From Patescibacteria group bacterium (GTDB lineage Bacteria > Patescibacteriota > Microgenomatia > UBA10105 > UBA927): a stretch of 64,000 nt of DNA. This document shows, piece by piece, positions 8,350-60,432 of the stretch. The notes below the pieces were generated by a model. It did not search any database and had not been told where the DNA came from. It saw only the letters and a program-made list of their open reading frames with translations. Positions within the stretch are counted from its first letter, which is position 1, and each line of letters starts with the position of its first letter. The stretch spans positions 27,814 to 91,813 of the forward strand of contig DATKGN010000010.1 of the NCBI GenBank assembly GCA_035510735.1, read 5' to 3'. Position numbers and translations under genes: made by a program.

Positions 8350-8386
8350 ACGTATAACCAATTGACAAATTAACCAATTAACAAAA
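8350..8386. repeat. 'aaccaattgacaaattaaccaattaacaa' block, inverted relative to the 'ttgttaat' tandem repeats downstream of the gene
   Basis: Reverse complement of the unit repeated at 8752-8830. Confidence 0.5.
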
Positions 8387-8388
8387 AT

Positions 8389-8751
8389 GTGAAAACATTT
8401 CGTTTTCTTGATTTTCCCGTTTATAAGGAATCAAAACTCTTTCATCAATACTGCATTAAAATAACCACAGCATTACCTCGAACATATTGGGAATTAGGTG
8501 ATCAATTGCGACGTGCTGCACTCTCCATTTGTTTGAATATTTCAGAGGGATCAGCTAAATATTCTGACCGAGATTTTAAGCGTTTTATTGAAAACGCATT
8601 AGGGTCCGCAAATGAGTCATTCGCATGTCTTGATATCGCGATTAACCAGAAATTAATTACCCAAAAAACATTTCTAGAAGGGCAAACGCTAATAGAGAGC
8701 ATTACTAGGCAACTTGGAGGATTATCAAAAAAGCTTCGTGCGTTTTGTTAA
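8389..8751 (+). CDS. four-helix-bundle protein (23S rRNA intervening-sequence protein family)
   Basis: Family motif 'DQLRRAALSICLNISEGSAKYSDRDFKRFIENALGSANE'. Flanked by inverted 'ttgttaat' repeat blocks. Confidence 0.8.
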   Translation: MKTFRFLDFPVYKESKLFHQYCIKITTALPRTYWELGDQLRRAALSICLNISEGSAKYSDRDFKRFIENALGSANESFACLDIAINQKLITQKTFLEGQTLIESITRQLGGLSKKLRAFC

Positions 8752-8830
8752 TTTGTTAATTTGTTAATTTGTTGTTTCCGTCAATTTGTTAATTAGTTAC
8801 TTTGTTAATTGGTAAATTTGTCACAATCGC
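8752..8830. repeat. tandem 8-nt 'ttgttaat/aatttgtt' repeats
   Basis: 'tttgttaatttgttaatttgttaatttgttg...ttgttaattagttactttgttaattggtaaatttgtc'. Confidence 0.7.
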
Positions 8831-9055
8831 GGCTTTCCTGATATCAAACTTCACCCGTTTAATGCATTTTGCACACGAACGGACTCTGGTTGAAACCCCA
8901 TGAATCGGCATCGTAATCCAGTGAAGGTTCGGGGCAAACGACCGCACGGTCTTTTGTGCACGTTTTTTCCACTGTCCACCAGCAACACCTGTGTGATGGG
9001 TGTGCTGTCTTCCTGCGTGAGTTTTTTTACTGCAAAGGTCACATTGGTACGCCAT
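8789..9055 (-). CDS. rpmB: 50S ribosomal protein L28
   Basis: 'MAYQCDLCSKKTHAGRQHTHH...FAPNLHW...VRSCAKCIK' matches the L28 pattern (MxxVCxxCGKK...NxSHx...PNLQ). Confidence 0.75.
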   Translation of the reverse strand: MAYQCDLCSKKTHAGRQHTHHTGVAGGQWKKRAQKTVRSFAPNLHWITMPIHGVSTRVRSCAKCIKRVKFDIRKAAIVTNLPINKVTN

Positions 9056-9067
9056 ATTAAAAGAAAT

Positions 9068-9155
9068 GAGAGCATTAGTGTTTAGAATTTAGCGTGAATT
9101 AATTAACTGAGCCCAAGTCTCTAATGCACTAAACTCTAATTTACTAAGCTCCTCT
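9068..9155. repeat. 'TAGAG/CTCTA'-word imperfect palindromic element (family copy 1)
   Basis: 'agcattagtgtttagaatttagcg...ctctaatgcactaaactctaatttactaagctcc'. Confidence 0.55.
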
Positions 9156-9175
9156 ATTGCCGTATACTATACCAC

Positions 9176-9823
9176 ATGATCGGCCAATTGATCAATAACC
9201 CCATCGCATTTGTCTTCTGGATCATCGCGCTCGTTGTTGCTATATCGATACACGAATTTTCCCATGCGTTTATGGCTGACTACCTCGGAGACCCCACGCC
9301 CAGGCTCCAGGGCCGGCTCACACTCAATCCACTCGCCCACCTGGATCCGATCGGTACGATACTGCTTCTCATCGCCCGGTTCGGCTGGGGAAAGCCGGTC
9401 ATCTTTGATCCGTATAATCTACGAAATCCGAAGCGTGACAGCGCGCTTATTTCTATTGCCGGCCCCATCTCAAACTTCCTCCTGGCATCAGTTTGTGCGA
9501 TTATCGTACATTTTTTAATGAATATAAATTCCACAGCCGTTGACGTACTCATTGCGCTTCTCCAATCCATCATTGTCCTCAGTGTCATGCTCGGAGTGTT
9601 TAACCTGGTCCCGATCCATCCGCTGGACGGATTTAAGATTGTTGAGGGGATATTACCCGATGAATATGCAAGACAATGGCACGAGCTTCAACCGTACGGG
9701 CTTATTTTCCTCCTGTTTCTTGCGTTTCCGATTCTCGGGAATGTCGCACCGCTAACCCGCGTGATCTCACCGGTGATTAATGGAATTCTTGGGATTTTGC
9801 TGCCAGGGACTTCGCTGTTCTAA
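9176..9823 (+). CDS. site-2 protease family (peptidase M50) membrane metalloprotease
   Basis: 'HEFSHAFMA' (HExxH) in a TM helix, and a downstream 'LVPIHPLDGFKIV' (LDG motif). Confidence 0.75.
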   Translation: MIGQLINNPIAFVFWIIALVVAISIHEFSHAFMADYLGDPTPRLQGRLTLNPLAHLDPIGTILLLIARFGWGKPVIFDPYNLRNPKRDSALISIAGPISNFLLASVCAIIVHFLMNINSTAVDVLIALLQSIIVLSVMLGVFNLVPIHPLDGFKIVEGILPDEYARQWHELQPYGLIFLLFLAFPILGNVAPLTRVISPVINGILGILLPGTSLF

Positions 9824-10011
9824 TGATGCGTAGGTGGACCACCTTCATCACCCGCGAGTGCTGCCGCCAAGTCTTGTTCCTGCATCTGTAATTCACCTTC
9901 ACCGAGAAATGGTATTGCGAATAGCCAAAGGGTTAACAGCTTCGTAATCACATTGCCGGCAAGCGCTGCTGCTTCTTTAGCTTTTTCATAGGGCGCAATC
10001 GTTTCGCTCAT
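9820..10011 (-). CDS. small hypothetical membrane protein
   Basis: 63-aa ORF filling the gap between convergent genes, with a hydrophobic core. Weak. Confidence 0.25.
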   Translation of the reverse strand: MSETIAPYEKAKEAAALAGNVITKLLTLWLFAIPFLGEGELQMQEQDLAAALAGDEGGPPTHH

Positions 10012-10082
10012 GGGGTAATTATATCATTTAGCGCTTCATATTTGGTACTTTCTTGATCCTTACAGTATAATAACCATATTGT

Positions 10083-14589: not shown

Positions 14590-14660
14590 ATGTCATTGCG
14601 AGACCGTTCATACGCCTGCCTGCGCAGGCAAGGAGAAGCAATCTCTCAAAGAGAATGCAC
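14590..14660. repeat. TGTCAT-element (partial copy)
   Basis: 'tgtcattgcgagaccgttcatacgcctgcctgcgcaggcaaggagaagcaatctc'. Shares the 'tgtcattgcgag' and 'gaagcaatc' blocks. Confidence 0.55.
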
Positions 14661-15995: not shown

Positions 15996-16110
15996 AGAGC
16001 TTACGCGGCGAGATTACGGGATAATACCTAGATCGAGGGTCCCCCGCCTGCCAATCGCCTTCGGCGATAACCGATGGCGGGCAGGGATTCCTGCCTCAAC
16101 GCTTGCCTCA
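15996..16110. repeat. tRNA-associated element (copy 1)
   Basis: 'agagcttacgc...ccccgcctgcc...ggcgggcaggga', shared with the segment downstream of tRNA-Trp. Confidence 0.5.
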
Positions 16111-17186: not shown

Positions 17187-17230
17187 TAAACCCCTTGGCG
17201 GGAACGCTCGAATGCGATATAATTGTTTTT

Positions 17231-17302
17231 GAGAGATTAGAGCTTAGGGTTTAGAGCTTAGTAAATTTCTTACTAAACTCTAATGCGCTAAACACTATAC
17301 TC
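17231..17302. repeat. TAGAG/CTCTA palindromic element (copy 2)
   Basis: 'gagagattagagcttagggtttagagcttag...ctaaactctaatgcgctaaacactatactc'. Confidence 0.6.
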
Positions 17303-17310
17303 TATTTTAT

Positions 17311-17484
17311 ATGGCCAAGAAAGATCAACGGGAACTGCTTGCACTCATCTGCACTGTATGTAAATCCCAGAACTATATTACAAAGAGGAATAAGATCAAT
17401 ACGCCGGAAAAACTGGTGCTTCAAAAGTATTGTCCTCACTGCCGAAAACATACACAACACAAAGAGACGAGTAAGTTGGATTAA
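17311..17484 (+). CDS. rpmG: 50S ribosomal protein L33
   Basis: 57-aa ORF 'MAKKDQRELLALICTVCKSQNYITKRNKINTPEKLVLQKYCPHCRKHTQHKETSKLD', the canonical L33 CxxC...CxxC zinc ribbon. Too short to appear in the ORF track. Confidence 0.8.
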   Translation: MAKKDQRELLALICTVCKSQNYITKRNKINTPEKLVLQKYCPHCRKHTQHKETSKLD

Positions 17485-17520
17485 AAGAGCTTAGGGAATT
17501 AGGGTATTAGAGTTTAGGAA
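17485..17520. repeat. TAGAG/CTCTA palindromic element (copy 3, short)
   Basis: 'aaaagagcttagggaattagggtattagagtttaggaat'. Confidence 0.5.
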
Positions 17521-17521
17521 T

Positions 17522-17896
17522 ATGGAAAAGTCCGTATTTAACTTCGAGAGACTCACGGTATACCAACGTGCATTAGCATTCGCCTTGAACATTTATTCAC
17601 GTACACAAAAATGGCCGCGGGAACATCTTTTTGGTTTAACAGATCAACTAAGAAGAGCATCTTTATCCATTCCGTTAAATATCGCTGAGGGGTATAGTAG
17701 GTCGCGAAAAGACTTTCAGCATTTTTTGACTCTATCACGGGGATCCTGTTTTGAATGTGTTCCGATAATAAAACTAGCGGAGTCTCTCACTTTGCTTACT
17801 TCAAAAGAAGCTGATATGTTTTATAATGAATTAGAGGAAATTGCTAAGATGCTTAGTGGACTACGGAGTTCGCTATTGAAACAACCTAAACTCTAA
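17522..17896 (+). CDS. four-helix-bundle protein (23S rRNA IVS protein family)
   Basis: 'DQLRRASLSIPLNIAEGYSRSRKDFQHFLTLSRGSCFEC'. Bracketed by TAGAG-family repeats on both sides. Confidence 0.8.
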   Translation: MEKSVFNFERLTVYQRALAFALNIYSRTQKWPREHLFGLTDQLRRASLSIPLNIAEGYSRSRKDFQHFLTLSRGSCFECVPIIKLAESLTLLTSKEADMFYNELEEIAKMLSGLRSSLLKQPKL

Positions 17897-17935
17897 AACC
17901 CTAAGCTCTAATCTCTAATGCTCTAAACTCTAACT
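17897..17935. repeat. TAGAG/CTCTA palindromic element (copy 4, short)
   Basis: 'aaccctaagctctaatctctaatgctctaaactctaact'. Confidence 0.5.
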
Positions 17936-18457
17936 ATGCATCGTAATACGTATTTTGTCGTGACGTTCTTAGCGGTTTTTGCCGCACTGGTAGTCGGAGT
18001 TAACATCGGGAAGAAATTCACGGGTCAAAATGCCCCGCCAATCCAACCTTCTCCCACCGCTTCACCCACACTTGCATCTATCCCATTATCTACTTATACA
18101 AATTCTGAGTGCGGCGCTACGTTAGAATTTCCAAGCACCCTTACGAAGCTTGAAGACGGCTCAGGAAGCGCAGTCCTTGTCAACCAGACCGATACAAAAC
18201 AATCCATTCTTATCACCTGCCAGGATAGTATCCCGCGGCCGCCCTTAGATTCAAATAAAATTGTGCAGGCGTTCGTACCGTATTCAACCGGCACCGGAAG
18301 CGTCGCGGCAACGCTCTATCACGACAGTTCGGCAAAAGACGGAACACCGGTCGACGACTTTATCGTCCGGATTCCGAAAACAACATTGGATTTTTATCTC
18401 TCAGGATTCGGCACCGCCTTCGATGACGTTGTGAAATCTATTCGACTCACCCACTAA
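17936..18457 (+). CDS. hypothetical membrane-anchored secreted protein
   Basis: TM 'YFVVTFLAVFAALVVGV', Pro-rich linker, no catalytic motif. Confidence 0.5.
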   Translation: MHRNTYFVVTFLAVFAALVVGVNIGKKFTGQNAPPIQPSPTASPTLASIPLSTYTNSECGATLEFPSTLTKLEDGSGSAVLVNQTDTKQSILITCQDSIPRPPLDSNKIVQAFVPYSTGTGSVAATLYHDSSAKDGTPVDDFIVRIPKTTLDFYLSGFGTAFDDVVKSIRLTH

Positions 18458-18638: not shown

Positions 18639-18717
18639 GCAAAGGGGTCGTGGTTCCCCGCCTGCCAGAGCTTACGCTCAGGCGTTAGCGGGCAGGGACT
18701 CCACGTGGCCCTGCAAA
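18639..18717. repeat. tRNA-associated element (copy 2), bounded by a direct repeat of the tRNA-Trp 3' end
   Basis: 'gtggccctgcaaa' occurs at 18631-18643 and again at 18705-18717. Between them lies 'ccccgcctgccagagcttacgctcaggcgttagcgggcaggga'. Confidence 0.6.
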
Positions 18718-18791
18718 CCAAACACGTTAGAATGACACTATTGTTCATTATTTCGTTTCATTTCGAAAATCTTCTATTATAGAATATAACT

Positions 18792-46430: not shown

Positions 46431-46470
46431 ACTTATAGAATACTACAAATCCGACAAATACTATAAATAT

Positions 46471-46938: not shown

Positions 46939-47910
46939 TTATGTGAATCGTGTAAGCAAACGAGCAACCTCGGTTTTCTTCTCTTTGGTGACCACAACCT
47001 CAACAAGTCCTTCGCGTCCTGTCGACGGCGGATGACCGTAATAGACGATACTGCCGATGGGTGCGTGAACAATAACAGGGAGGGTCAGAAGATCTTCTTC
47101 ACCGTCAATAACCAACACTATTCTTTTGCGTTCCCTAATGCCGCTCGCCCATGCTTCGACGGCTTCAATTGCCGCCTTTGCAATATAACCGGGCCCGCTT
47201 TTCACCCGGACAATGGTATATTCTTTGGGAAATTTGAACGATTCAAATGGTTGGTAGGGCTTCCGCTCGACCTGTAAATCGATAATGGCAAGCGCTGGTT
47301 TCACACCGCACAAAAACACGGTCTCCGTGGTCACGTCGCCAACCGCGATAACAACGTTATCACGATTTTTAAGAACCGCTTGTTTAATACCACTTGATTC
47401 CAATATTTTCCCCAAGGGGCGTTGTAACTCCGGTCGTAAACTATCAGGAAGAAGCAGTCTTCCTTCGCCGTCAATTTCCCCTTCGCGCATACGCGTTGAT
47501 GAGATGGTCCGCTGATCCTCGGCTGGGATAAGCTCAACCTCGACAATGGCAAGCGGCGGAAGCCCACGCTCATGCCGGAGCATATTAATCTCGTCGGCGG
47601 TAGTACGGTTATCACGGGTTACGGCGATGGCATCGATATCCTGGGCGATGATTGTCGACCCCCACCGGTTATCCAGTGGCACGATCATCGTCCGCTCGGC
47701 TACACCCTGATGCCTTAACCATGAAGTAAGTGCCTGATAGCGCTTACTGTGGGGCGTTATATCCTTACCCTTTTTAAACCGACGGATATAGGCTTCCGAT
47801 GTTAATCCGATCGTAACCCGTGCTCCTGATGCAAATGTTTTGGTAAGCAAATAGGTATGGCCCTTATGAAGCCCGTCAAATGTCCCGCCGACGACGATGT
47901 GTTTGTACAT
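46939..47910 (-). CDS. fused archaeal-type phosphopantetheine adenylyltransferase (N-terminal) and DUF359-type GTP-dependent dephospho-CoA kinase (C-terminal)
   Basis: N-terminal 'IVVGGTFDGLHKGHTYLL' (cytidylyltransferase HxGH). C-terminal 'VVIAVGDVTTETVFLCGVKPALAIIDLQVERKPY' matches the DUF359/DPCK core. Confidence 0.55.
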   Translation of the reverse strand: MYKHIVVGGTFDGLHKGHTYLLTKTFASGARVTIGLTSEAYIRRFKKGKDITPHSKRYQALTSWLRHQGVAERTMIVPLDNRWGSTIIAQDIDAIAVTRDNRTTADEINMLRHERGLPPLAIVEVELIPAEDQRTISSTRMREGEIDGEGRLLLPDSLRPELQRPLGKILESSGIKQAVLKNRDNVVIAVGDVTTETVFLCGVKPALAIIDLQVERKPYQPFESFKFPKEYTIVRVKSGPGYIAKAAIEAVEAWASGIRERKRIVLVIDGEEDLLTLPVIVHAPIGSIVYYGHPPSTGREGLVEVVVTKEKKTEVARLLTRFT

Positions 47911-48972: not shown

Positions 48973-50463
48973 TTATTTATTGATTCTATACACCCCGACG
49001 AACTCATCATCCAGCGGTTTTTTATATTTTGCCACTAGCGTCATGTACTTTTCCAAACCCCCGTATTGATTTCCCCGTGACACAAAATACCACGGACGAT
49101 TGTTAAATACTCCAAAGCCTGCGACTTCTTTCATTTGTTCAAGGTAAAAGACCGGAATATGTTCGCGCGTCATATAGCTTAGGACCGCATCCTCAGGATT
49201 GCCGCTGTCAAGGCGCACAAAGACCACAATCGGCTGTTTTGCCGATTGGCGAGTCAGATACCCGACAGCCTCACTGACCCCCCAGCCTGACGTCCAGCCG
49301 GTCACATATTGGCTGAAATCCAACCGCGCCGCGGGAAGCGGTTTCAGAATAGAATAGAACTGTAACGGGAAAAAACTCAAAAGAACGCCCTCAAATGCAA
49401 CGGAAACGATAACAGCATACACAATAACACGCTTCTTACAATACGATAACCATAAAGCCGCCAATAATAATAAAGGAACCGAGCTCACGGCGAGATAACG
49501 GGCGGTTAAACTCGTTAACAGCATATATTCGATGAATATCGGGCCGAAAATCCACAGAGCCAATACCTGTACTTCCCGTTTTTTCCAGAATTGCCAGAGT
49601 GCGATACAAAAGACAATAACGGCAACGGGCCCTACAAATGCAAGAAGCCAACTCACAATCGCCTGTGCATTATTGAACCATTGATCGGGTGGCGTTGCTA
49701 AAATTTGCATGAGTGTTCTTGTTCGCACAATAGCCGTCATAGTTTTTGAATAATCGATATTCGGATTAAAGAGCACCGGCACCATGAGGGCAAATGCCGT
49801 CAATACTCCGCAAATAACCCAACTGACTACCACCTGCCACGTGGCGGCCCACTGTTTCCAGTTGATAAGCAGGGTGAAAAATACCAAAGGAACCGCAAGG
49901 AGCATGGTCGATTTATACCACCAGCCTGTGGCAACAACCGCGCCAAGGAGTATTCCTTTTGCGAGGGTAGGCTTCTGGGAAAACAGCAAGGAAAGATACA
50001 GAGCAAGCGTGAAGCACGCGGTAACCGGGCTTTCGGCAAGAGCCAACGTGTCAAAAAGGATGAGAAATGGACAGAGTGCGATGAGGAGTAATGTATAGTT
50101 TATGTCATTCTCGCGCAGGCGAGAATCGGTATTCATTTTCAAAGAATATATGGATCCTCGGGTCAAGCCCGAGGATGACAATATGGAAAAAACGCCCCAG
50201 AAGGTTACACAGGACCAGAGGATGCTGACAAGCCGCATGGAAATCAAGGGATCGAAGGGCAAACGTTGTATTATACCAAATGAAATGGCGACGAGCGGCT
50301 GTTTGCCGTCAAGGGTCCACGCCCACCAACGGCTGGGATCCTGTAAAAACCCAAGTCCCCAGTGCATATAAATGGCTTCATCATTAAAAATCGGTAAGCG
50401 GAAAGCCAATAGGAGCCGGAGGGTCAGGAATAATCCAAATATCACCCAAATACGACGGTTCAT
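48973..50463 (-). CDS. GT39/ArnT-like (PMT_2 family) membrane glycosyltransferase carrying an in-frame palindromic-element insertion
   Basis: Polytopic membrane protein. Nt 50100-50180 is a TGTCAT-element read in frame as 'GLTRGSIYSLKMNTDSRLRENDINY'. Confidence 0.6.
   Translation of the reverse strand: MNRRIWVIFGLFLTLRLLLAFRLPIFNDEAIYMHWGLGFLQDPSRWWAWTLDGKQPLVAISFGIIQRLPFDPLISMRLVSILWSCVTFWGVFSILSSSGLTRGSIYSLKMNTDSRLRENDINYTLLLIALCPFLILFDTLALAESPVTACFTLALYLSLLFSQKPTLAKGILLGAVVATGWWYKSTMLLAVPLVFFTLLINWKQWAATWQVVVSWVICGVLTAFALMVPVLFNPNIDYSKTMTAIVRTRTLMQILATPPDQWFNNAQAIVSWLLAFVGPVAVIVFCIALWQFWKKREVQVLALWIFGPIFIEYMLLTSLTARYLAVSSVPLLLLAALWLSYCKKRVIVYAVIVSVAFEGVLLSFFPLQFYSILKPLPAARLDFSQYVTGWTSGWGVSEAVGYLTRQSAKQPIVVFVRLDSGNPEDAVLSYMTREHIPVFYLEQMKEVAGFGVFNNRPWYFVSRGNQYGGLEKYMTLVAKYKKPLDDEFVGVYRINK
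50100..50180. repeat. TGTCAT-element inserted in frame within a coding sequence
   Basis: 'tgtcattctcgcgcaggcgagaat...atcctcgggtcaagcccgaggatgacaa'. Confidence 0.65.
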
Positions 50464-52032: not shown

Positions 52033-53946
52033 TTATTTACTCACTTTCACGAATGCATTAACCGATTCAATTATATCTGGCGCCGCAATCCCCTCATAGT
52101 CAAGAAGCTCTTTCGCTTTTCCCGACCTTGGCGTTTTGTTAACGGCAAGATGGATAAACGGAATCTTCGATCTTCCGACAATGGCTGATGCCACCGCTTC
52201 TCCCAATCCCCCTTCAGGATAATGGTCTTCAACAACAATGATTGCCTTCGTCTCCTTTGCAGCAGTGAGTAACGTCTTTTTGTCTATCGGTTTAACGGAA
52301 TACGCATCAATTACCCGGATGCCCACGCCGTCATTCTCTAGTTGTTCCTGCGCTTTGAGCGCTTCAAAAAGCGTGATGCCTGCGGCAACAACCGTAACAA
52401 TCTCTTTGGTATTTGCGTGATGGGTTTTACTGCCGCCAACAGGAAATTCATCGCTCTGGGTGTAGAGAATCGACGTCTCGGGACGGGTTGTTCGGATATA
52501 ACAAATGCCCTTTGTATTTAATGCATCTTCGGTAAGCCGCTCCGTGGCGTACGCATCAGCCGGGTAAAGAACGGTCGATCCGTGCACAGTGCGGAATAAG
52601 GCAAGATCTTCAAGCCCCATCTGCGATGGACCATCCTCACCAATTGAGACGCCTGCGTGCGAGCCGTTGAATATAATTGATGAACCGGAAAATGCCGCCA
52701 TCCGGATCTGATCGGCAGCACGGGTTAAAAAGCATGCAAATGATGAGACGACCGGATGAAAGCCGCGCGCGGAAAGACCGACAGCAACGCCGGTCATATT
52801 CTGTTCGGCGATAAAAAGCTCAAAAAACCGCTTCGGATACGCCACTCCGAAAAACTCGGTATAGGTTGAATTTTTCACATCCCCGTCAACAACGACAATA
52901 TGGGGGTCCGTCGCTCCGACCCGTTTCAAAGCGTTACCGAATGCTTTACGCGTTGCAACAGGTTTTGTGGGATCATAAAAAGGTGATGTCGGCTTGGTTT
53001 TATCGAGCGTGAGAGACACAGTAACGCTTGGCGCCTTATTGATGATGCCTCTCACTTTCTTATCAACAGGTGCAATTTCAGCGATCGCCTTTTCAAGCTC
53101 CTCTTTGGATAGCGGTTTCCCGTGCCACCCCGGCATATTTTCTATGAACGAGACGCCTTTGCCCTTCGTGGTTTTAGCAAGAATTACTGTTGGCCCCTTG
53201 CCGCCCAGCGCTTCCATCCACGCCGAATCAACGGATGCGACATCATTCCCGTCACTAACCGTAATGACGCGCCAACCGAATGCTTCAAAGCGCCGCTGAT
53301 ATATTTCAAGTTCATATTCGTACATCGTCGGGTCCGACTGTCCTAAACGGTTGACATCGACAACAAGGTAAAGATTGTTTATCTTTTTAAAGCTCGCGGC
53401 TGCTGCTGCCTCCCACACGGACCCTTCGGCAATTTCTCCGTCACCGGCGAGAATAAAGACACGAGGTAACGTATTAGGGGTTTCGTATTTTGTATTAGGG
53501 TTAATATTATTGTTTTCTCCGTACCCCCTAATTCCAATTCCCTGATACGACAAGCTCATCGCCAATGCTTCACCCAAACCGATGGACAATCCCTGTCCTA
53601 AGCTACCGGTTGCCGCCTCTGTATAGCGGAAACGCTCCGTCGGATGGCCCTCAAGATTGCTGTCAAACGTCCGGTACTTCATGAGCTCTTCTTCGGTAAT
53701 GGCACCCGCTGCTGCATACAAAGAATAATAAAGAGGCGATGCATGACCTTTGCTGAAAATCACGCGGTCGTTGCCTGGGTCTTTGGGATCAGCGAGGTTG
53801 TACCGCAAGTACTTAAAAAATAATACGGTCATAAGTTCCACAGCGGAAAGCGATGATGACGGGTGTCCGCTTCCGGCCTGGGTCGTTATTGTGAGGATGT
53901 AGTAGCGGATAAGATGCGTCAGTTTATCAAGTGATGTCTTATTCAT
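52033..53946 (-). CDS. tkt: transketolase
   Basis: 'GSGHPSSSLSAVELMTVLF', 'ILAGDGEIAEG', full length 637 aa. Confidence 0.9.
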   Translation of the reverse strand: MNKTSLDKLTHLIRYYILTITTQAGSGHPSSSLSAVELMTVLFFKYLRYNLADPKDPGNDRVIFSKGHASPLYYSLYAAAGAITEEELMKYRTFDSNLEGHPTERFRYTEAATGSLGQGLSIGLGEALAMSLSYQGIGIRGYGENNNINPNTKYETPNTLPRVFILAGDGEIAEGSVWEAAAAASFKKINNLYLVVDVNRLGQSDPTMYEYELEIYQRRFEAFGWRVITVSDGNDVASVDSAWMEALGGKGPTVILAKTTKGKGVSFIENMPGWHGKPLSKEELEKAIAEIAPVDKKVRGIINKAPSVTVSLTLDKTKPTSPFYDPTKPVATRKAFGNALKRVGATDPHIVVVDGDVKNSTYTEFFGVAYPKRFFELFIAEQNMTGVAVGLSARGFHPVVSSFACFLTRAADQIRMAAFSGSSIIFNGSHAGVSIGEDGPSQMGLEDLALFRTVHGSTVLYPADAYATERLTEDALNTKGICYIRTTRPETSILYTQSDEFPVGGSKTHHANTKEIVTVVAAGITLFEALKAQEQLENDGVGIRVIDAYSVKPIDKKTLLTAAKETKAIIVVEDHYPEGGLGEAVASAIVGRSKIPFIHLAVNKTPRSGKAKELLDYEGIAAPDIIESVNAFVKVSK

Positions 53947-53985
53947 GAAGCTATCATACTCTAGGGATTATTATCCGTCCAGAGA

Positions 53986-54831
53986 TTAAAATAGGATCCA
54001 GAGTACGAAGAGGTATATCGCACCCATTTGGGTTAAAAACTTAACGACCTTGACTCCCCGCTGAAGCGAGACTATCTGTTGAGCTCCGCGTCCGGAGAGT
54101 GAAATCCAAATACCGTAAAATACCAATAATATAGGAAGCTGAATGATAATCGGGATGGTAAAAGTTGCCCAGGAGTACATATTGAAAACCAGGTAAAGAA
54201 TACCTGCCGCTGCTGCCAAAACCAAACCTGAAACGAGACTCCGGTCAATTCCTAATACGACATGGGTGTTGGCCAATCCCGCCTTTTCATCAGCCTGAGT
54301 GTCCGCAATTTGATACGGGAACATACCTGCAAGAATCGCAAGACTAGATATGATGCTAAATGCGGCAATAAAATTGACATTTGCTTTTCCCCATAAAGGA
54401 GCAAAAAACGGCAGCATCCAGGTAGCCACTATCTGTGAAATCAAATCCAGACCAAATCTGCGTTTGAGACGAATAGGCTCAAGGGAGTACGAAAGAGCGA
54501 TAGCGTAAATAACTACTGCCCACCAAATAAACCCGACATACCAACTCAATGCTAATCCAACGAGGGAACAAGTAATAAACATCAAAAGTACGACACGCTT
54601 ATCCAGGATGTCATTCTTTCTTATATGAATATTATTCCAACTGAGCCTGTCCGTATCGTTCCGGTCGGTGATCTCATTCACGATAAATGCAGAGATGGAG
54701 AGGAGTACTACCCCTATCGCCCACCAAAAGATGGACCAGTTACGGATTCCGGCGAATAGTCCGGCAGCAATTACTGAACTGAATGCCAGATATTGATCCT
54801 GGAGACGGAAAAGACGGATATATTTCCCCAT
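53986..54831 (-). CDS. UbiA-family prenyltransferase (DPPR-like)
   Basis: Polytopic. 'IVNEITDRNDTDRLS' is an Asp-rich UbiA motif. Confidence 0.55.
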   Translation of the reverse strand: MGKYIRLFRLQDQYLAFSSVIAAGLFAGIRNWSIFWWAIGVVLLSISAFIVNEITDRNDTDRLSWNNIHIRKNDILDKRVVLLMFITCSLVGLALSWYVGFIWWAVVIYAIALSYSLEPIRLKRRFGLDLISQIVATWMLPFFAPLWGKANVNFIAAFSIISSLAILAGMFPYQIADTQADEKAGLANTHVVLGIDRSLVSGLVLAAAAGILYLVFNMYSWATFTIPIIIQLPILLVFYGIWISLSGRGAQQIVSLQRGVKVVKFLTQMGAIYLFVLWILF

Positions 54832-54846
54832 ACGGGAAATATCATA

Positions 54847-55518
54847 TCACGAAGACGAGACGTCCTTGAGTTGTTCGATGGCCGAGGGAATTCCGTCGGG
54901 ATTGTTGTATATAAACGAGGTAGACACCAATCTTGTGGCTCCTGCATCTACTGCAATTCTCGCTGTTTTATCATTAATCCCGCCGTCTACTTCAATAGGC
55001 AAATCCGGATAATGTTCATGGATCCGGCGTATTTTTTCCGTCGTCTCTTCAAGAAACGGCTGACCGCTGAAACCGGCCTCAATCGTCATCACGAGAACCG
55101 TATCAACCTGGTCCAAAAACGGCTCGGCCACCTCAAGCTCGGTTGCCCCGTCAATGGCTATCCCAACCTCGACGTGCTCATACTGAGCCTGGTCAAAGAA
55201 CACACGCGGATCATGTGCCTCAACGTGCGCAATAATCCGTTTGAATCCGTTATCGACAAGGGTTTTGAGATATTTTTCGGGACTGACGACCATGAGATGC
55301 GCTTCAAAAGACAAATGGGAAAGCTCGCGTTTGAGTACTGGCGTCCCAAACTTGGAAAAATCGAGGATGGTCGTATTTTGGACTAGCGTGTTATCGGCAA
55401 TATCAATTTGCACCCACTCCACATGCGGAGCTACAAGTAACAACCGTTCCTCAACGCGCGCCCACTCTTTTTCTAATATTCCCGGGATTACGTCAATCAT
55501 AGATTCGTCATCAGACAC
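54847..55518 (-). CDS. rpe: ribulose-phosphate 3-epimerase
   Basis: 'WVQIDIADNTLVQNTT', 'HLMVVSP', C-terminal 'VDGGIN'. Confidence 0.8.
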   Translation of the reverse strand: MSDDESMIDVIPGILEKEWARVEERLLLVAPHVEWVQIDIADNTLVQNTTILDFSKFGTPVLKRELSHLSFEAHLMVVSPEKYLKTLVDNGFKRIIAHVEAHDPRVFFDQAQYEHVEVGIAIDGATELEVAEPFLDQVDTVLVMTIEAGFSGQPFLEETTEKIRRIHEHYPDLPIEVDGGINDKTARIAVDAGATRLVSTSFIYNNPDGIPSAIEQLKDVSSS

Positions 55519-55519
55519 T

Positions 55520-55605
55520 CGTCATTCGTCATCCGGAGTCCGATATTCGACATTCGGGATTACATATTGCGGATCACGAATTACGGATGTCGGATTACTT
55601 TTGTA
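55520..55605. repeat. degenerate heptanucleotide tandem repeats
   Basis: 'cattcgt catccgg agtccga tattcga cattcgg gattaca tattgcg gatcacg aattacg gatgtcg gattact'. Confidence 0.6.
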
Positions 55606-56049
55606 TTATGTATCTCTTTCACTAATCTTATTTAAGCGCCGGTTATGCCGTTCGCCTGCTTCAAATTCAACAAGCAAAAAAGCCTTCACGAGCTCTTTTG
55701 CCTCGTCAAAATCGGTAAAATCTGCGGATAATGAAAGCACATTGATATCATTACTCTGACGATTGTGTTTTACATCCGCAACATGGACCGCAGTCGTGCT
55801 CCGTATACCATGAACCTTATTTGCCGCTATCGTGACGCCTCCACCTGATCCGCAAATCACAATACCGCGGCTCCCGGGGTCAGCTGCCACCTTATCTGCA
55901 ACGGCAAATGAAAAATCGGGAAAATCATCATCGGGATCATACTGTGTGTTCCCGCAATCCTGTATATCATTTCCCTGTTCACGAAGCCATAAAATCAATT
56001 TCTCCTTGAGGTGAAACCCGCGATGGTCGGCGCCTGTATAGATGGTCAT
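55606..56049 (-). CDS. rpiB: ribose-5-phosphate isomerase B
   Basis: 'GIVICGSGGGVTIAANK'. Confidence 0.85.
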   Translation of the reverse strand: MTIYTGADHRGFHLKEKLILWLREQGNDIQDCGNTQYDPDDDFPDFSFAVADKVAADPGSRGIVICGSGGGVTIAANKVHGIRSTTAVHVADVKHNRQSNDINVLSLSADFTDFDEAKELVKAFLLVEFEAGERHNRRLNKISERDT

Positions 56050-56069
56050 AAGTTAACAAATCAACAATA

Positions 56070-56112
56070 CAACAAAGTAACAAAGTAACAAAGTAACAAA
56101 GTAACAAAGTAA
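56070..56112. repeat. tandem octamer 'caaagtaa' x5
   Basis: 'caaagtaacaaagtaacaaagtaacaaagtaacaaagtaac'. Confidence 0.75.
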
Positions 56113-56113
56113 C

Positions 56114-56842
56114 TTATTTTAGAGTACCAACTGCCTGATCAGTGTACAAGAGGCAGTGTGGCATTTCATTTATTATCCGGGCCGGAGTTTTATACAGCTC
56201 ACCCGTTGGCGCGAGCGCCGCATCAAGCGCTTTCTTTTTCCCTGATCCAACCGCATACACAATAGATGTCGTCACTTTCCGCAAAAACGGCAGGCTGACT
56301 GTAACCCGAAGCGGAAAGGGGTTGCGCCAACTGGCATCGTAGCCCACGACCCAGGTATCGCTATCCTCAAAGTAAAACTCAAATGTCCGCTTATCATCGG
56401 CGTACGGCATGATACCCGCGGTGTGTCCGTCCGGCCCCACTCCCTGAAGAGCGATAATAATGCCATCCGTATGAGCCATACTCCATGCTTTGAGAAAATC
56501 TTCAAACCGTTTAGCTAATTCTCCAATCGCTTCGTTGTCTTTAGGAACGCTTTCAAACGTTGTCACCCCACGCTTCACCGCTTCTTTATAAAAGTCGGTC
56601 TGGGAAAGCCGCAGGAAATTGTTGACGCCGGGATCTTTGGAAAACCGTTCGTCAAGAACCGCAACCGCCACATGCGCATCAAAAAGATCCATGGGAATGG
56701 AATGGAGAAGATTCAGTGATGAACCGCCGGAAACCAACAGAAGAACTGGTGTATTTTTATTCTCCCCAAGAACCTGGGTAAGCGCTTCCGATGCTTCCCG
56801 TGTCACTGTTGCTGTGTCTGAATATGAATGTATGTCGACCAT
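56114..56842 (-). CDS. pgl: 6-phosphogluconolactonase
   Basis: 'VLLLVSGGSSL'. NagB/Pgl fold; located between gnd and rpiB. Confidence 0.7.
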   Translation of the reverse strand: MVDIHSYSDTATVTREASEALTQVLGENKNTPVLLLVSGGSSLNLLHSIPMDLFDAHVAVAVLDERFSKDPGVNNFLRLSQTDFYKEAVKRGVTTFESVPKDNEAIGELAKRFEDFLKAWSMAHTDGIIIALQGVGPDGHTAGIMPYADDKRTFEFYFEDSDTWVVGYDASWRNPFPLRVTVSLPFLRKVTTSIVYAVGSGKKKALDAALAPTGELYKTPARIINEMPHCLLYTDQAVGTLK

Positions 56843-56936
56843 AATTATTTCGTTAACCGTTAACCGAAAATCGTTAAACGCTTTCTATCTATTTTAAGGG
56901 TTGACGGTTCACGATTCACGCTTAACGTTTTTTCGT

Positions 56937-57932
56937 TTACCGCGGCTCCTTATGTCCGCCGTACCCGGCCCGCAGAGCCGAGACTACTTTCCCTGCAAAC
57001 GTCGGATTGGTCACTGATTTTTCCCTGGCCCGTATTGAATCCTCAATAACTTTTGCTTCAACACCAAGTTCATATGCCTCCTCAAGGGTCCATTTACCGG
57101 TCTCTCCTCCGCCGACTTTTCCCGAATACGCTGTAAGTTTCGGATCACTGTCGAAAGCATTCGCCAATAGTTCAACGAGCCAACTCCGGACGACACTTCC
57201 ATGGCTCCACGTATGGGCAACCTTGGCAAAGTCAAGATCGTATGGCCCGTCTGCAAGAATCTCAAATCCTTCGCCGATTGCTTCATTCATCCCGTATTCA
57301 ACTCCGTTGTGAACCATTTTAACGTAATGTCCGGCGCCTGACGGACCGAAGTGCGCCCATCCATCTTTCACCGCAGCTGCATTCCAGAGCCAATCGAGCT
57401 TTTGAACTTCAGAAGTCTCCCCACCGATCATGAGACATGCGCCGTGCCGGGCTCCGGAGAGTCCTCCGCTCGTGCCGCAGTCGATGTAATGAATCCCTTT
57501 CGCCGCAAGCTCCTTACTACGTCGAACCGTATCTTTGTAGTAACAATTGCCTCCATCTATAACAATATCCCCTTTTTGTATACCAGAGGACATCAATTGT
57601 TCCAATACTTCATCGACGGGTTTACCATTAGGAACCATGAGCCAGATAACTCGAGGTGGAATTAATTGTTTTATGAGATCCAGAAGATCATAGGCGGGGT
57701 TGAGAGTACCAAGCTTTATCTTCTCGTGATCCGTGATCCGTGATCCGTGATCCGTATTAGCTTTTCCAATAACCGATGTCGGATTCCGAATGTCGGATAT
57801 CGACTTTGCGAACTCTTCCGTCACTTCACGTGTCCTGTTAAAGGCGACCACGTCAATATCCTGCTCCAACAGATGAAGCACCATATTCTTTCCCATGCGA
57901 CCAAGCCCAATAAAACCGAGTTGATGGCCCAT
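56937..57932 (-). CDS. gnd: 6-phosphogluconate dehydrogenase (decarboxylating, short Gnd-like form) with in-frame repeat insertion
   Basis: 'LGFIGLGRMGKNMVLHL'. Residues ~50-73 ('SISDIRNPTSVIGKANTDHGSRITDHEKIK') are encoded by the 'gtgatcc' x4 and 'gatgtcggat' repeats. Confidence 0.8.
   Translation of the reverse strand: MGHQLGFIGLGRMGKNMVLHLLEQDIDVVAFNRTREVTEEFAKSISDIRNPTSVIGKANTDHGSRITDHEKIKLGTLNPAYDLLDLIKQLIPPRVIWLMVPNGKPVDEVLEQLMSSGIQKGDIVIDGGNCYYKDTVRRSKELAAKGIHYIDCGTSGGLSGARHGACLMIGGETSEVQKLDWLWNAAAVKDGWAHFGPSGAGHYVKMVHNGVEYGMNEAIGEGFEILADGPYDLDFAKVAHTWSHGSVVRSWLVELLANAFDSDPKLTAYSGKVGGGETGKWTLEEAYELGVEAKVIEDSIRAREKSVTNPTFAGKVVSALRAGYGGHKEPR
57713..57810. repeat. heptanucleotide tandem repeats located inside the gnd coding sequence
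   Basis: 'cgtgatccgtgatccgtgatccgtgatccgt' and 'gatgtcggattccgaatgtcggatatcgac'. Confidence 0.7.
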
Positions 57933-58496
57933 ATACCCATGGTAAATATAATTGATAAAACAATCAATAGAGAGGAATATCCCCGATCCCCACCCGCTCT
58001 ATGCCTCTCTGGCGGGCCCGCTTTCGTGCAAATCATAGCGGGTCCTGCTGGCTTCACTACTAATCGCTCGGGAACGGATTTTTAAAGACACGTTCGGTAG
58101 AGTCTTTGCGTATGAGTAATAGGTTGTTCCCACCTCACTAAGTGCGCGTTTGCACCATAGTAAGACACCTTTATTCCTGTGCAAACGCGCGAGTTGTCTT
58201 TAGAAAATCGTTCCCTTCGCGCTTTCTCTCGTTTACGGGTGGCGTGGGATAAGGGACCCCGGCAGCACGGAGCGCGACCACGAATACCACAAGAAATAAG
58301 AAAGAATACGTCCGTGGTATGAATGTGGGCAGAAGACGTGATATATCAATACCACGGTTGGTGGTGCCGGGAGTACTGACGGGAATATATCCCACGACAG
58401 GACCCGTAAGTTACGGGAGATTCTCCGCTATAGCCACAAAAAAGCCCCGCATCGCTGCAGAGCTTTTTTGTTTTTTTTGTACTTTTTTTACCGAGT

Positions 58497-58883
58497 TTAA
58501 TACCGGTTTCCGCCACCACGTCGATCGTGTCCGCCGCCGTGACCGCCACCGAATCCGCCGCCACCGCGTCGATCTCCACCACCACCGCCGCCGCGATATC
58601 CGCCGCCGCCACCACCGAACGAGTTATCTCGCGGTGCCTGGGGTTTGGCCTCATTGACGACGATTGCACGTCCGTCAAGCGTCTGGCCGTTTAATGTTTC
58701 GATTGCCTTTTTCGCTTCCTCTTCAGAGGACATTTCGACAAATCCGAATCCTCTGGATTTTCCAGAGTATTTGTCCATGATGACGGTTGCACTGACAACC
58801 GTACCTGCCTGACCAAAAAAATCATGGAGCGACGCATCGGTCGTGTCCCATGAAAGACTTCCTACAAACAATTTCGCTGCCAT
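58497..58883 (-). CDS. RRM-type glycine-rich RNA-binding protein
   Basis: RNP1/RNP2 'KLFVGSLSW' and 'RGFGFVEM', plus an RGG/Gly-rich tail. Confidence 0.8.
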   Translation of the reverse strand: MAAKLFVGSLSWDTTDASLHDFFGQAGTVVSATVIMDKYSGKSRGFGFVEMSSEEEAKKAIETLNGQTLDGRAIVVNEAKPQAPRDNSFGGGGGGYRGGGGGGDRRGGGGFGGGHGGGHDRRGGGNRY

Positions 58884-59065
58884 ACTGGCCCTCCTAATAA
58901 ACCTTCCTTCGCGTCAATAGACGTGAGAAAAACTAATACGGCCCTAATAATACCGTATTGGTGAAATAATAGCTAGTACGAAAATGAGGTTGTGGTTGAC
59001 ATGAGGGCGTGATTGCGCTATAACGCTCGTACTGTCCGCTAGTGACAGTATTTTTTTAAAAAACT

Positions 59066-59572
59066 ATGAAAGAAGATATTAAAAGCGCAATCGTCACATT
59101 AACTCAACACACAAATAATTCTGGAGTTTCCGAGGAGCAATGGAAAGAAAACAAAGAAATGGAACATGCGATCGAACAGGCCTGGATGCACGCAGATGAC
59201 ATTACGGTAAAGTACGGTCTTCCAAAAACTAACTCGCTGAAAGAAAAATCACATGCTGATACGAAACAAATACCATTATTTTCAACTGAAGATGAACAAA
59301 TTCCTCAAGAACTTTGGTTCAATTTAACCGGAATCAATCCTCCTGAATCGGGAAAATCCAATTCATTTTCACAGATAACGTGCTGGGTTCGGAACGAAAA
59401 TAACGCAGTAGATCCTTTATTTGTACTATCCCATGACTCTGCGACTTTGATGCATAACCAGAAACTAGTCAAATTAGAATTATCGCATATAGAAGCTATA
59501 GAAACGATCCTTTCATTTATAGAACAGGGTTGTGCAGAAATGGCAAACGCACCGGCTCCTACCGAAGCCTGA
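59066..59572 (+). CDS. hypothetical protein
   Basis: 168 aa, no motif. Confidence 0.4.
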   Translation: MKEDIKSAIVTLTQHTNNSGVSEEQWKENKEMEHAIEQAWMHADDITVKYGLPKTNSLKEKSHADTKQIPLFSTEDEQIPQELWFNLTGINPPESGKSNSFSQITCWVRNENNAVDPLFVLSHDSATLMHNQKLVKLELSHIEAIETILSFIEQGCAEMANAPAPTEA

Positions 59573-59608
59573 ATATCGGGCTCGCCTTCATAAACTGCAG
59601 AATTTCTT

Positions 59609-59923
59609 TTACCGGGGTAATTTATTCGACAAGGCTTCATAGGCCCCGTCGAGCTTGGCAAAAACGTCATCGGGAAGCGCATCCTGCGCCCAGGCCACGG
59701 AGAGCATGCTTCTGACGCCTGCAACAAGCCCCATGGCATCGCGGAGGATGTCATCGTGTAATCGTCGGTCGCGCCTCGAAACGCCGTCTGCGATCGTTGT
59801 AAGGGTTTTGAGACCTAATCGTTGGGCACGTTTGACTACCATATTACTGTCATCAAGCTCCAAGAGATCAAGAACCGCCGTGTAGGCTTCCTGCCAAAGT
59901 TTATCGTCGTGGAATGTAGACAT
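59609..59923 (-). CDS. hypothetical protein, possibly a divergent four-helix-bundle paralog
   Basis: 'KLWQEAY...RLGLKTLTTIADGVSRRDRRL' weakly follows the family pattern. Confidence 0.3.
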   Translation of the reverse strand: MSTFHDDKLWQEAYTAVLDLLELDDSNMVVKRAQRLGLKTLTTIADGVSRRDRRLHDDILRDAMGLVAGVRSMLSVAWAQDALPDDVFAKLDGAYEALSNKLPR

Positions 59924-59924
59924 A

Positions 59925-59962
59925 TGTTTCGTAATCCGTCATCCGTAATCCGTCATCCGAGT
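59925..59962. repeat. tandem 'cgtaatccgtcatc' repeats
   Basis: 'cgtaatccgtcatccgtaatccgtcatccgagtac'. Confidence 0.6.
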
Positions 59963-59964
59963 AC

Positions 59965-60330
59965 TTATCCGGTCGCGTGCACTCGAATCAGACCATTGAT
60001 GACTTGACCTCCTCGAATTATCAATGAATATAATGCATCAAACTCTTTTTCCTTTATCAAGCCCAGATCTTTTGCGAGTATGAGAAAATTTGCCACCTCA
60101 CTGTTCGACCCGCGTGCTTGATAGTAAAAGCGTAGCTTATCTGGATAATGGTATCGACCAAATCCTTCGGCAATATTCGCAGTTACAGAACTTGCTGCTC
60201 GCCTTAACTGATCAATGATACCAAACTTTTCCTCTTTCGGAAAGCCAACCGTCAATTTATAGATAGCGAGTACAATTTGATGGTTAATTTTCCACGCTTC
60301 CAAATCAGTAAATGAAGCAATTTTGCTCAT
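59965..60330 (-). CDS. four-helix-bundle protein (23S rRNA IVS protein family)
   Basis: 'IDQLRRAASSVTANIAEGFGRYHYPDKLRFYYQARGSNSEVANFL'. Start likely 'MSKIASFTDLEAWK' at 60330. Confidence 0.75.
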   Translation of the reverse strand: MSKIASFTDLEAWKINHQIVLAIYKLTVGFPKEEKFGIIDQLRRAASSVTANIAEGFGRYHYPDKLRFYYQARGSNSEVANFLILAKDLGLIKEKEFDALYSLIIRGGQVINGLIRVHATG

Positions 60331-60351
60331 ATTTATACTCGTCACTCGGAA

Positions 60352-60432
60352 CTCGTCATCCATCATCCGTATTGCGCTTCCCAGCTGTCAAATGTTGGAT
60401 GTCGGATGTCGAGTGTCGAATGTCGCCGCTAC
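60352..60432. repeat. degenerate heptanucleotide tandem repeats
   Basis: 'ttggatgtc ggatgtc gagtgtc gaatgtc gcc'. Confidence 0.6.

Follow-up and report, generated by a model that had tools for sequence, protein, structure and literature searches.

The stretch of DNA considered here, 64,000 nucleotides of contig DATKGN010000010.1 of a Patescibacteria group bacterium (hereafter the window), carries five genes for four-helix-bundle (4HB) proteins and, next to the last of them, a sixth open reading frame (ORF) that is a more distant relative. The five canonical proteins are clear members of the family PF05635/TIGR02436, also named '23S rRNA intervening-sequence protein' or 'S23p', and most of their genes are enclosed, as small cassettes, between inverted arms of short tandem repeats. 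We describe the genes and their arms, the palindromes of the same type that lack an ORF, and the corresponding loci of relatives.

The 4HB genes and their inverted arms

All five canonical proteins exceed the curated cut-offs of both models, scoring 55-116 bits with PF05635 (cut-off 33.8 bits, Pfam) and 64-111 bits with TIGR02436 (cut-off 24 bits). The PF05635 E-values, by gene start, are 1.4e-23 (8389), 2.9e-33 (17522), 5e-32 (41873), 8.9e-15 (46471, a divergent subfamily) and 8.9e-34 (59965). No other family matched above its curated cut-off: bAvd, MGMT_N and DUF5363 gave weak, sub-threshold matches, no transposase domain was detected, and PADLOC assigned none of the 4HB proteins to a defence system. 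In the 17522 protein, residues 8-118 align with residues 11-122 of XCC0516 from Xanthomonas (2gsc_A, PDB 2GSC; phmmer E=3.5e-14), and the likeness to this solved pentameric 4HB protein is one of sequence. The sixth ORF (59609) is by itself below both library thresholds (Pfam 15.2 bits, E=0.027). Its orthologues in two related metagenome contigs (L091 and L095; 38% identity, E~1e-25) match an 85-sequence 4HB hidden Markov model (HMM) at E 2e-7 and 3e-6, and the profile of the three sequences aligns end to end with the 4HB profile over 109 columns (hhalign probability 95.2%, E=2.7e-8). Together, the orthologue matches and this alignment identify the ORF as a divergent 4HB relative, linked to the family through profile-profile comparison. 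An earlier note on this DNA had proposed six 4HB paralogues that all share the motif DQLRRA..SI..NIAEG; five of them stand by curated models and the sixth only as such a relative, and the motif, present in four ORFs, is altered in 46471 and 59609. No copy beyond these six was found in the window when every ORF was searched with HMMs, and about 6.7 kb added beyond one window edge by exact-protein look-up held no further 4HB gene. The paralogues are old, with pairwise identities of 20-54%.

Tandem arrays of period 7-9, as delimited by Tandem Repeats Finder (8355-8382, 8744-8821, 17491-17510, 17886-17933, 41568-41597, 46439-46469, 46876-46940, 59930-59959 and 60386-60425), abut every canonical 4HB gene. 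Four of the five genes are enclosed by a matched pair of inverted arms, 20-52 nt long and mutually reverse-complementary; every arm repeats a 7-9-nt unit about 4-5 times in a degenerate tandem array. The unit differs from one cassette to the next (TTGTTAAT, TTAGAGC, GTTACTT and TTTGTAGTA), and the four arm pairs, given in Table 1, rank above every other inverted repeat within 700 nt in the window. In cassette 2 the last codons of the gene even form part of the downstream arm. The fifth cassette (59965) is built differently, with a full hairpin upstream and a same-sense array downstream and without a bracketing inverted pair. The repeat strings quoted in the earlier note are all present in the sequence, and its statement that each clear copy is flanked by repeat blocks is borne out in a sharper form, namely as split reverse-complementary arms in four cassettes of five, 59965 being the exception.

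When the sense RNA of the whole cassettes is folded, the 5' and 3' flanks are paired over 22, 31, 44 and 36 bp in the predicted minimum-free-energy structure of four of the five cassettes, with arm duplex z-scores of -6.9 to -10.4. Both the start and the stop codon are covered by the predicted stem, the ORF thus being enclosed by a stem made of the element's own inverted ends; the fifth cassette has a local upstream hairpin. There are three arms at 41560-42275 and again at 59924-60428, and alternative pairings are therefore possible at both places. The spacers of the cassettes consist almost wholly of arm sequence and no terminator lies within a cassette; the short spacers flanking four of the window cassettes leave no room for a promoter of their own, and 59965 lies behind a spacer of 98 nt. 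A promoter-like site (17195-17223) precedes the rpmG hairpin. With this arm-ORF-arm layout, like that of the 23S rRNA intervening sequences (IVS), and with flanks that pair in the predicted RNA in four cases of five, the term self-contained mini-cassettes proves apt.

The specificity of the arms was assessed with a score obtained by aligning the upstream flank of an ORF to the reverse complement of its downstream flank, with a threshold of 34 in the window. The five 4HB genes score 43, 34, 57, 48 and 17, so that four of five reach the threshold, against one of the 82 other window ORFs (Fisher p=1.1e-5); that single ORF is rplK, which is placed between two complete hairpins. Arrays as such are common, occurring in about 11 of some 45 non-4HB spacers of the window, and the specific feature is therefore the pair of split matched arms around an ORF and not the presence of repeats per se.

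The same holds in a wider sample of 80 loci of 4HB relatives (L007-L086) from species-representative genomes of many phyla, among them Saccharibacteria, Planctomycetota, Omnitrophota, Zixibacteria, Bacteroidota, Chloroflexota, Bdellovibrio and cultured Mesorhizobium. An inverted-repeat score of at least 26 is reached by 27 of the 80 4HB genes and by 11 of 364 neighbouring ORFs (p=3.5e-14); an array of period 6-9 lies within 70 nt on at least one side of 57.5% of the 4HB genes versus 13%, and on both sides of 20% versus 1.5% (p=5e-8). Enrichment over other genes, on which the earlier note had made its proposal depend, is thus found in the window as well as in 80 unrelated loci. The unit is particular to the locus, as with GTAGGGC/GCCCTAC in Mesorhizobium, GGGGCTA in a Bacteroidetes metagenome-assembled genome (MAG) and GGCTATTGGAA in Saccharibacteria. 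Across loci the median distance between arm end and start or stop codon is about 10 nt, and the arrays near 4HB genes contain a median of 4.2 units (interquartile range 3.6-4.9). The layout of cassette 59965, a complete hairpin upstream of the ORF, also recurs among these relatives. Moreover, 25 of the 80 genes are within 300 nt of a tRNA gene, 21 of these downstream of it and co-oriented, and the tRNAs are of many identities (Arg, Pro, Ala, Val, Ser, Glu, Leu, Thr and others). Co-orientation of 4HB genes with their neighbours in general does not differ from the background (76% vs 69%). The tRNA and ribosomal-protein neighbourhoods, together with the classical location in rRNA, point to residence in very highly transcribed units.

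Table 1. Cassettes, arrays and palindromes of the window (positions in the 64-kb stretch)
Feature	Position	Strand	Description
4HB gene 1	8389-8751	+	120 aa, GTG start; PF05635/TIGR02436; arm pair 8363-8385 / 8801-8823, 23 nt, 96%
Upstream arm, cassette 1	8352-8386		AACCAATT/AACAAATT octamer array
Downstream arm, cassette 1	8743-8826		TTTGTTAA x9.6; overlaps 3' end of rpmB (8789-9055, -)
4HB gene 2	17522-17896	+	124 aa; between rpmG (17312-17484) and gene 17936-18457; arm pair 17499-17518 / 17885-17904, 20 nt, 95%
Upstream arm, cassette 2	17487-17521		TTAGGG/TTAGAG units; ends at start codon
Downstream arm, cassette 2	17885-17933		CTCTAA/CCCTAA units
4HB gene 3	41873-42226	-	117 aa; arm pair 41799-41842 / 42231-42274, 44 nt, 84%
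Upstream arm, cassette 3	42227-42274		GTTACTT units and unique part AATATAGCAACGCGAGCAA
Downstream arm, cassette 3	41799-41846		Alternative pairing with array 41568-41597 across the HTH gene
Third GTTACTT-class array	41568-41597		TAACTAAG x3.8; upstream of HTH_17/MerR gene 41600-41800
4HB gene 4	46471-46848	-	125 aa; divergent subfamily; arm pair 46439-46469 / 46901-46931, 31 nt, 90%
Upstream arm, cassette 4	46876-46940		ATTTGTAGT/ATTTATCGG 9-mers x7.3
Downstream arm, cassette 4	46436-46470		
4HB gene 5	59965-60366	-	121 aa from ATG 60330, or 133 aa from ATG 60366
Complete heptamer hairpin 5' of gene 5	60331-60428		CGACATC arm and GGATGAC arm (CGTCATC/GGATGAC class); between zwf and the 4HB gene
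Array between genes 5 and 6	59926-59962		CGTAATCCGTCATC x2.1; same sense as proximal upstream arm
Divergent 4HB-like gene 6	59609-59923	-	104 aa; without arms of its own
TTAGAG-class hairpin, ORF-less	9066-9154		Between rpmB and M50 peptidase gene
TTAGAG-class hairpin, ORF-less	17228-17306		Immediately 5' of rpmG
TTAGAG-class hairpin, ORF-less	33968-34056		Immediately 5' of rplK
TTAGAG-class hairpin, ORF-less	34486-34558		rplK/rplA spacer
TTAGAG-class hairpin, ORF-less	38372-38451		5' of rplJ
AAATTCAAAAT-class palindrome, ORF-less	38984-39109		rplJ/rplL spacer
CGTCATC/GGATGAC-class hairpin, ORF-less	55500-55600		Class of cassette 5
Single-arm array	56050-56113		AACAAAGT x5.4; immediately 5' of rpiB
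CGTTAAC-class hairpin, ORF-less	56848-56931		
GTTCATG-class hairpin, ORF-less	63632-63715		
In-frame AAATTCAAAAT-class palindrome	2424-2531	+	Inside Wzy_C/TPR ORF (1802-4087)
Second in-frame AAATTCAAAAT-class palindrome	3125-3246	+	In Wzy_C/TPR ORF (1802-4087)
In-frame heptamer array in fmt	4809-4839	+	ACGGATTACGAATG x2.2; CGTCATC class

ORF-less palindromes and the loci of relatives

At least 12 palindromes of this type in the genome have no ORF, three of them in frame inside two genes (Table 1). All 11 of those tested fold as hairpins (z-scores -1.8 to -6.0). Arrays of the cognate classes are dispersed over the window, with five further sites of the TTAGAG class and further sites for the classes of the cassettes at 8389, 41873 and 59965. 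The hairpin at 34486-34558 is 89% identical over 55 nt, loop included, to 38394-38448 in the hairpin 5' of rplJ, and the two are therefore copies and not independent products of slippage. The two in-frame palindromes of about 110-120 nt bracket the Wzy_C domain of their ORF, a membrane-protein gene, and encode similar peptides (…KTQ..NSKQFG..EF.FPLDL…). The gene fmt, for methionyl-tRNA formyltransferase (4745-5893), contains more in-frame 7-8-nt arrays (5367-5396, 5477-5555, 5682-5739 and 5778-5799); the arrays of this gene give low-complexity inserts in the protein (NGLRMTDYELR, QQYNNKTIKQS and REQQINKLTTQQSDNTTKQRNN), and two of them belong to the classes of the arms of cassettes 8389 and 59965. 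The repeats are consequently not private to the 4HB genes, since the same arrays stand at rpmG, rpmB, rplK, rplA, rplJ, rplL and rpiB and inside two coding genes. A pentose-phosphate cluster (52033-61919, minus strand), composed of genes for transketolase, rpiB, a 6-phosphogluconate dehydrogenase-like protein and zwf, has the 59965/59609 pair at its end, and three of its spacers hold heptamer hairpins.

Cassettes are found after rpmG, next to rpmB and after zwf, and the neighbouring genes are functionally unrelated. Domain searches found no integrase, transposase, recombinase or reverse transcriptase near them. One cassette adjoins a small gene of the helix-turn-helix (HTH) type HTH_17/MerR (41600-41800, plus strand, 66 aa), which is bracketed by arrays of the GTTACTT class and matches the PADLOC model mad1 (E=5e-12); it is 98.5% identical in L013, and it adjoins a 4HB gene in L012, L013 and L021. 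This gene had been read as an excisionase-like hint of mobility; because it is so strongly conserved in a relative and no mobility enzyme lies nearby, it does not count as evidence of mobility.

Other repeats were also observed in the window. A second, unrelated family of palindromes of about 90 nt (GTCATTGCGAG…CGCAATGAC) has copies at 4640-4745, 14590-14650, 39940-40020 and 61950-62040; it fills the rplK/rplA spacer in L091 and L097, where the window has a heptamer hairpin, and this spacer is therefore a hot spot for small palindromes. GGATCCTCGGGTCAAGCCCGAGGAT occurs twice (41249-41290 and 50135-50176), CCCGCCTGCCA…GGCGGGCAGGGA hairpins stand just after tRNA-Thr and tRNA-Trp (~16030-16110 and ~18660-18740), and a 75-nt unit is present in three tandem copies at 39729-39934. 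An ORF of 1006 aa (23262-26282), without a Pfam match and located beside a cohesin-domain protein, contains a 171-nt unit x2.1 (86% identity) and an ACGCCG hexamer x18, its repeat stretches lying at 24723-25082 and 25629-25736. The 564 nt at 57933-58496 contain no ORF of at least 75 aa and have long complementary segments, with no Rfam match at the gathering threshold.

Comparison with relatives reveals the turnover of the elements. Six MAGs have the gene order of the window, and L009 keeps the same rpmG-4HB arrangement. In L007 a 4HB gene lies immediately 5' of rplK, and in L010 a 4HB gene with an in-frame stop lies immediately 5' of rpmG; at both positions the window has an ORF-less hairpin. 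In L007 and L010 the unit TTATGAGT makes up the 4HB arms as well as the ORF-less hairpins that separate tRNA genes; the unit of the window is TTAGAGC, and L009 also has TTAGAG-type units. Thus the repeat class is a property of a genome and its 4HB gene together. In a metagenome scan anchored on rplK (80 contigs, 55-84% L11 identity, 604 kb), most contigs have no hairpin in these spacers and a few have hairpins of yet other classes. The look for empty sites in relatives, which the earlier note had recommended, therefore yielded filled and ORF-less positions (L007 and L010) and hairpin-free spacers in most relatives, but only four 4HB matches in the 604 kb. Decay is also evident: the copy at 2986-3357 of L010 is full-length with an in-frame TAA, and at 8601-8774 of L095, one of the scanned contigs, a fragment retains only the C-terminal 57 residues, followed by an CGAAGTAA array. 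Seven assemblies of this strain (the window and six others) are base-for-base identical at the rpmG-4HB locus.

The arms follow the sequence of the protein. At least eight arm 7-mers are common to 62% of the pairs that have a protein identity of 70% or more and whose flanking genes show no detectable homology, a test blind to shared tRNA neighbours, and to 2-4% of the pairs below 55% identity. In one subfamily, from MAGs labelled as three phyla, the upstream heptamer hairpin is conserved and the similarity spans from the hairpin to the stop codon; two of its loci carry tandem modules. The core GGCTATTGGAA is conserved in the two arms of three Saccharibacteria cassettes, but changes in the 3-nt spacers are not compensated, a pattern that favours sequence recognition.

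Known systems with a similar layout

ORF-bearing IVS of 23S rRNA are known from Leptospira, Coxiella burnetii, Brucella and Haemophilus, at sites in helix 25 or 45. In the Coxiella IVS, tandem GACAGAT heptamers (x2-3) stand just before the S23p start, within the stem; RNase III cuts at the first repeat, the copy number differs among strains, the ORF is decaying and the S23p protein is apparently not produced (PMC4990558). The window elements resemble the IVS in the protein family (PF05635), in having a long stem of terminal inverted sequences whose loop contains the ORF and, as in Coxiella, in the tandem heptamers located in the stem directly upstream of the start codon. Other likenesses are the lack of an own promoter, with expression expected through a strong host transcript, the sporadic distribution and the decay of the ORF. 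Unlike the IVS, they are placed in mRNA operons and spacers or, in other genomes, downstream of tRNAs; the window genome has several divergent copies with a unit per copy and many ORF-less hairpins, and RNase III cleavage is here a prediction. The window has no rRNA match, Rfam finding four tRNAs only, and no conserved 23S motif is present in the 166 loci examined. None of the window copies is inside an rRNA gene; the proteins are PF05635 members, and the elements are IVS-like in their working but are not IVS, because they are not located in rRNA. The earlier note had called IVS mobile and excised by RNase III: excision has been shown experimentally (PMC4990558), whereas mobility is only a hypothesis in the literature.

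A second group of known repeats resembles the arms. In Xanthomonas, repeat no. 15, (GGGAATC)x4, is located 6 nt past bccP and extends over the XCC0516 start codon (PMC4692102, S2 file). As XCC0516 is the 4HB protein of PDB 2GSC, the heptamer array touches the gene of a crystallised family member, a link passed over without comment by the authors, who report about 70 convergent (inverted) array pairs per genome, mostly of four units (PMC4692102). TAACTGA arrays occur at start codons in Beggiatoaceae, cyanobacteria and Bacteroidetes, and MacGregor proposed translational control for them (PMC4679880). Together with the cyanobacterial short tandemly repeated repetitive (STRR) sequences (GGGGAYT), these heptameric repeats of Xanthomonas (GGGAATC) and of Beggiatoa, Microcystis and Bacteroidetes (TAACTGA) have in common with the window arrays the 7-nt units, mostly about four per array, and the intergenic location, often as convergent pairs, close to start codons or the ends of genes, and the variation from one close relative to another; they differ in that the window genome has several classes and an ORF between arms. 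The main texts of PMC4692102 and PMC4679880 do not mention 4HB or PF05635, and no literature was found that ties PF05635/S23p to heptamer repeats in general, in a search that left subscription journals mostly uncovered, so that an earlier description is possible. What appears to be new is the occurrence of an IVS-type cassette outside rRNA, joined with heptamer-hairpin repeats.

In layout the elements are like the repetitive extragenic palindromic (REP) sequences, and their hairpin-forming doublets (REPIN), with the REP-associated tyrosine transposases (RAYT): inverted copies of a repeat that is also scattered through the genome stand on either side of a gene, and each gene variant has its own repeat class. 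The likeness ends at the transposase, since RAYTs are HUH/Y1 transposases and the 4HB proteins match PF05635 only, with no known catalytic motif; moreover the window arms are tandem arrays and not a single palindrome. Rickettsia palindromic elements (RPE) and miniature inverted-repeat transposable elements (MITE) are comparable as palindromes of about 80-125 nt located in spacers and in frame in genes, gained and lost between relatives, but they do not consist of heptamer arrays and have no known 4HB ORF in the loop. Finally, Avd, the accessory protein of diversity-generating retroelements (DGR), binds nucleic acid and a partner enzyme. It is a homologous 4HB protein forming a pentameric barrel (PMC10053308); here the 4HB match is below the equivalog cut-off, and neither a reverse transcriptase nor template and variable repeats accompany it. 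The idea that the window proteins are such Avd proteins, left over from DGR, hardly merits belief: besides weak NF033474/bAvd matches, of which the best scores 25.9 bits against an equivalog cut-off of 80, there is no reverse transcriptase domain among the large ORFs and no direct repeat pair of the template/variable kind was found.

Origin and function of the elements

The reading that we favour, and to which we give an even chance as a whole, is that these are IVS-type selfish palindromic elements outside rRNA, with the canonical 4HB gene as cargo: the inverted arrays would be the arms and the ORF the loop of a small palindromic DNA element. ORF-bearing and ORF-less palindromes would then form one set of selfish, duplicative DNA, comparable to RPE, REPIN and MITE, with the ORF-bearing forms as its 'full' members, and IVS-type elements would have colonised operons, tRNA flanks and rRNA alike. 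As the short spacers of four window cassettes have no room for an own promoter, transcription is expected to depend on read-through from strong promoters of the host. The predicted pairing of the arms in the transcript gives a stem of 22-44 bp over the start and stop codons, and this stem would, by analogy with the Coxiella IVS, be a substrate of RNase III. The 4HB protein, as a relative of the nucleic-acid-binding Avd pentamer, may bind or act on its own arms.

Several observations weigh against this reading. The window contains no identical or near-identical cassettes, hence no sign of recent transposition, and no enzyme able to move the elements was found, a helical bundle of 120 aa being an unlikely transposase. 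Target-site duplications, at which no search was aimed, were not seen. Cognate arrays elsewhere in the same locus of about 6 kb are only 2.3-fold enriched relative to other loci, and the arms of a cassette are not consistently more similar to each other than orthologous cassettes are. Clearly matched arms are present in only about one third of the family members elsewhere, and 42% of the members elsewhere have no array within 70 nt. Lastly, arm mismatches on the sense strand are G-U in 43 cases and A-C in 38, which gives no hint that pairing in the sense RNA is under selection; the lack of a G-U excess suggests that the complementarity of the arms may stem from their origin as a copy rather than from selection for RNA pairing.

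The main rival, which seems to us somewhat unlikely, is a regulatory system of the host, in which the hairpins would be RNA or DNA operators (for processing, mRNA stabilisation or translation control) and the 4HB proteins their class-specific binders, each autoregulating through its own arms and controlling a regulon, such as that of the TTAGAG class at rpmG, rpmB, rplK, rplA and rplJ. In fact, all five ORF-less TTAGAG hairpins adjoin ribosomal-protein genes, their 3' arms ending a few nt before start codons, the repeat class tracks the protein sequence, the proximity of 25 of the 80 genes to tRNA genes places 4HB genes near stable-RNA genes, and the relative Avd is a nucleic-acid binder. The conserved GGCTATTGGAA core with its uncompensated spacers looks more like a binding motif than like a constraint on pairing, yet such recognition is needed by the favoured reading and by host regulation alike. 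For the TAACTGA repeats, translational control has been proposed (PMC4679880). Against operators stand the hairpin-free state of the same spacers in most close relatives and the change of class between relatives, the unrelated functions of the cassette neighbours, the in-frame copies within coding genes, hardly a sensible place for an operator, and the existence of 4HB pseudogenes and fragments, to which the Coxiella protein, apparently not made, can be added.

The tracking of protein by arm also bears on the proposal that the ORF alone is mobile and inserts into the loops of existing palindromes, as IS1397 inserts into REP sequences, so that the arms would be the split target. The genome is indeed rich in ORF-less hairpins with loops of 4-8 nt, the arms reach up to the start and stop codons and the arm sequence is different in each cassette; but the arm class follows protein similarity even with different flanking genes, in one subfamily the complete upstream hairpin travels with the ORF, and a bare ORF of 360 nt has no plausible insertion machinery, which makes this proposal distinctly unlikely. 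Inverted repeats of 20-44 nt, 360-430 nt apart, would also suit phase variation, with the arms as recombination sites that flip the ORF. No recombinase gene is present in the window, six independent assemblies show the orientation of the window, and the arms are degenerate tandem arrays matched at 79-96% and not defined crossover sites, so that such inversion is very improbable. Scarcely credible is the absence of any specific link, with small genes lying by chance between heptamer repeats generated by slippage: although about one quarter of the non-4HB window spacers have arrays, and rplK, rpmG and the HTH gene are bracketed too, as each lies between two elements, the enrichment appears in the window and in 80 unrelated loci, the Coxiella and Xanthomonas cases are independent, and the two arms of a cassette share unit variants in the same order, for instance over 23 nt at 96%.

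A further possibility, which we regard as rather unlikely, is that PF05635 proteins are the missing trans-acting partner of the heptamer hairpins found in many bacterial genomes (STRR, GGGAATC, TAACTGA and the window arrays) in the manner of REPIN and RAYT. Each paralogue would then recognise its own unit, perhaps with one unit per subunit of the pentamer, the arms having about 4-5 units, and the protein would promote the origin, spread or maintenance of the palindromes, the 23S IVS being just one of their landing sites.

To our knowledge, PF05635/TIGR02436, a very widespread family with a structure solved since 2006, has no known function, and the heptameric intergenic repeats (STRR, GGGAATC and TAACTGA), catalogued repeatedly, have an unexplained origin. 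The two are found together in at least four settings, namely the window, the 80 loci, the Coxiella IVS and XCC0516 of Xanthomonas; if the link is causal, both of these orphans would gain a testable function, and the connection between 4HB proteins and repeats can be tested in X. campestris, which is culturable and has a 4HB protein of known structure. A figure legend of a terascale clustering screen places '23S rRNA IVP' among the domains linked to CRISPR arrays (PMC10910872), an entry that, as far as that legend goes, heptamer arrays mistaken for CRISPR may explain. Given a causal link, in-frame repeat insertions in the proteins of such genomes would be explained as well, and the IVS of 23S rRNA would be one habitat of a broader class of elements.

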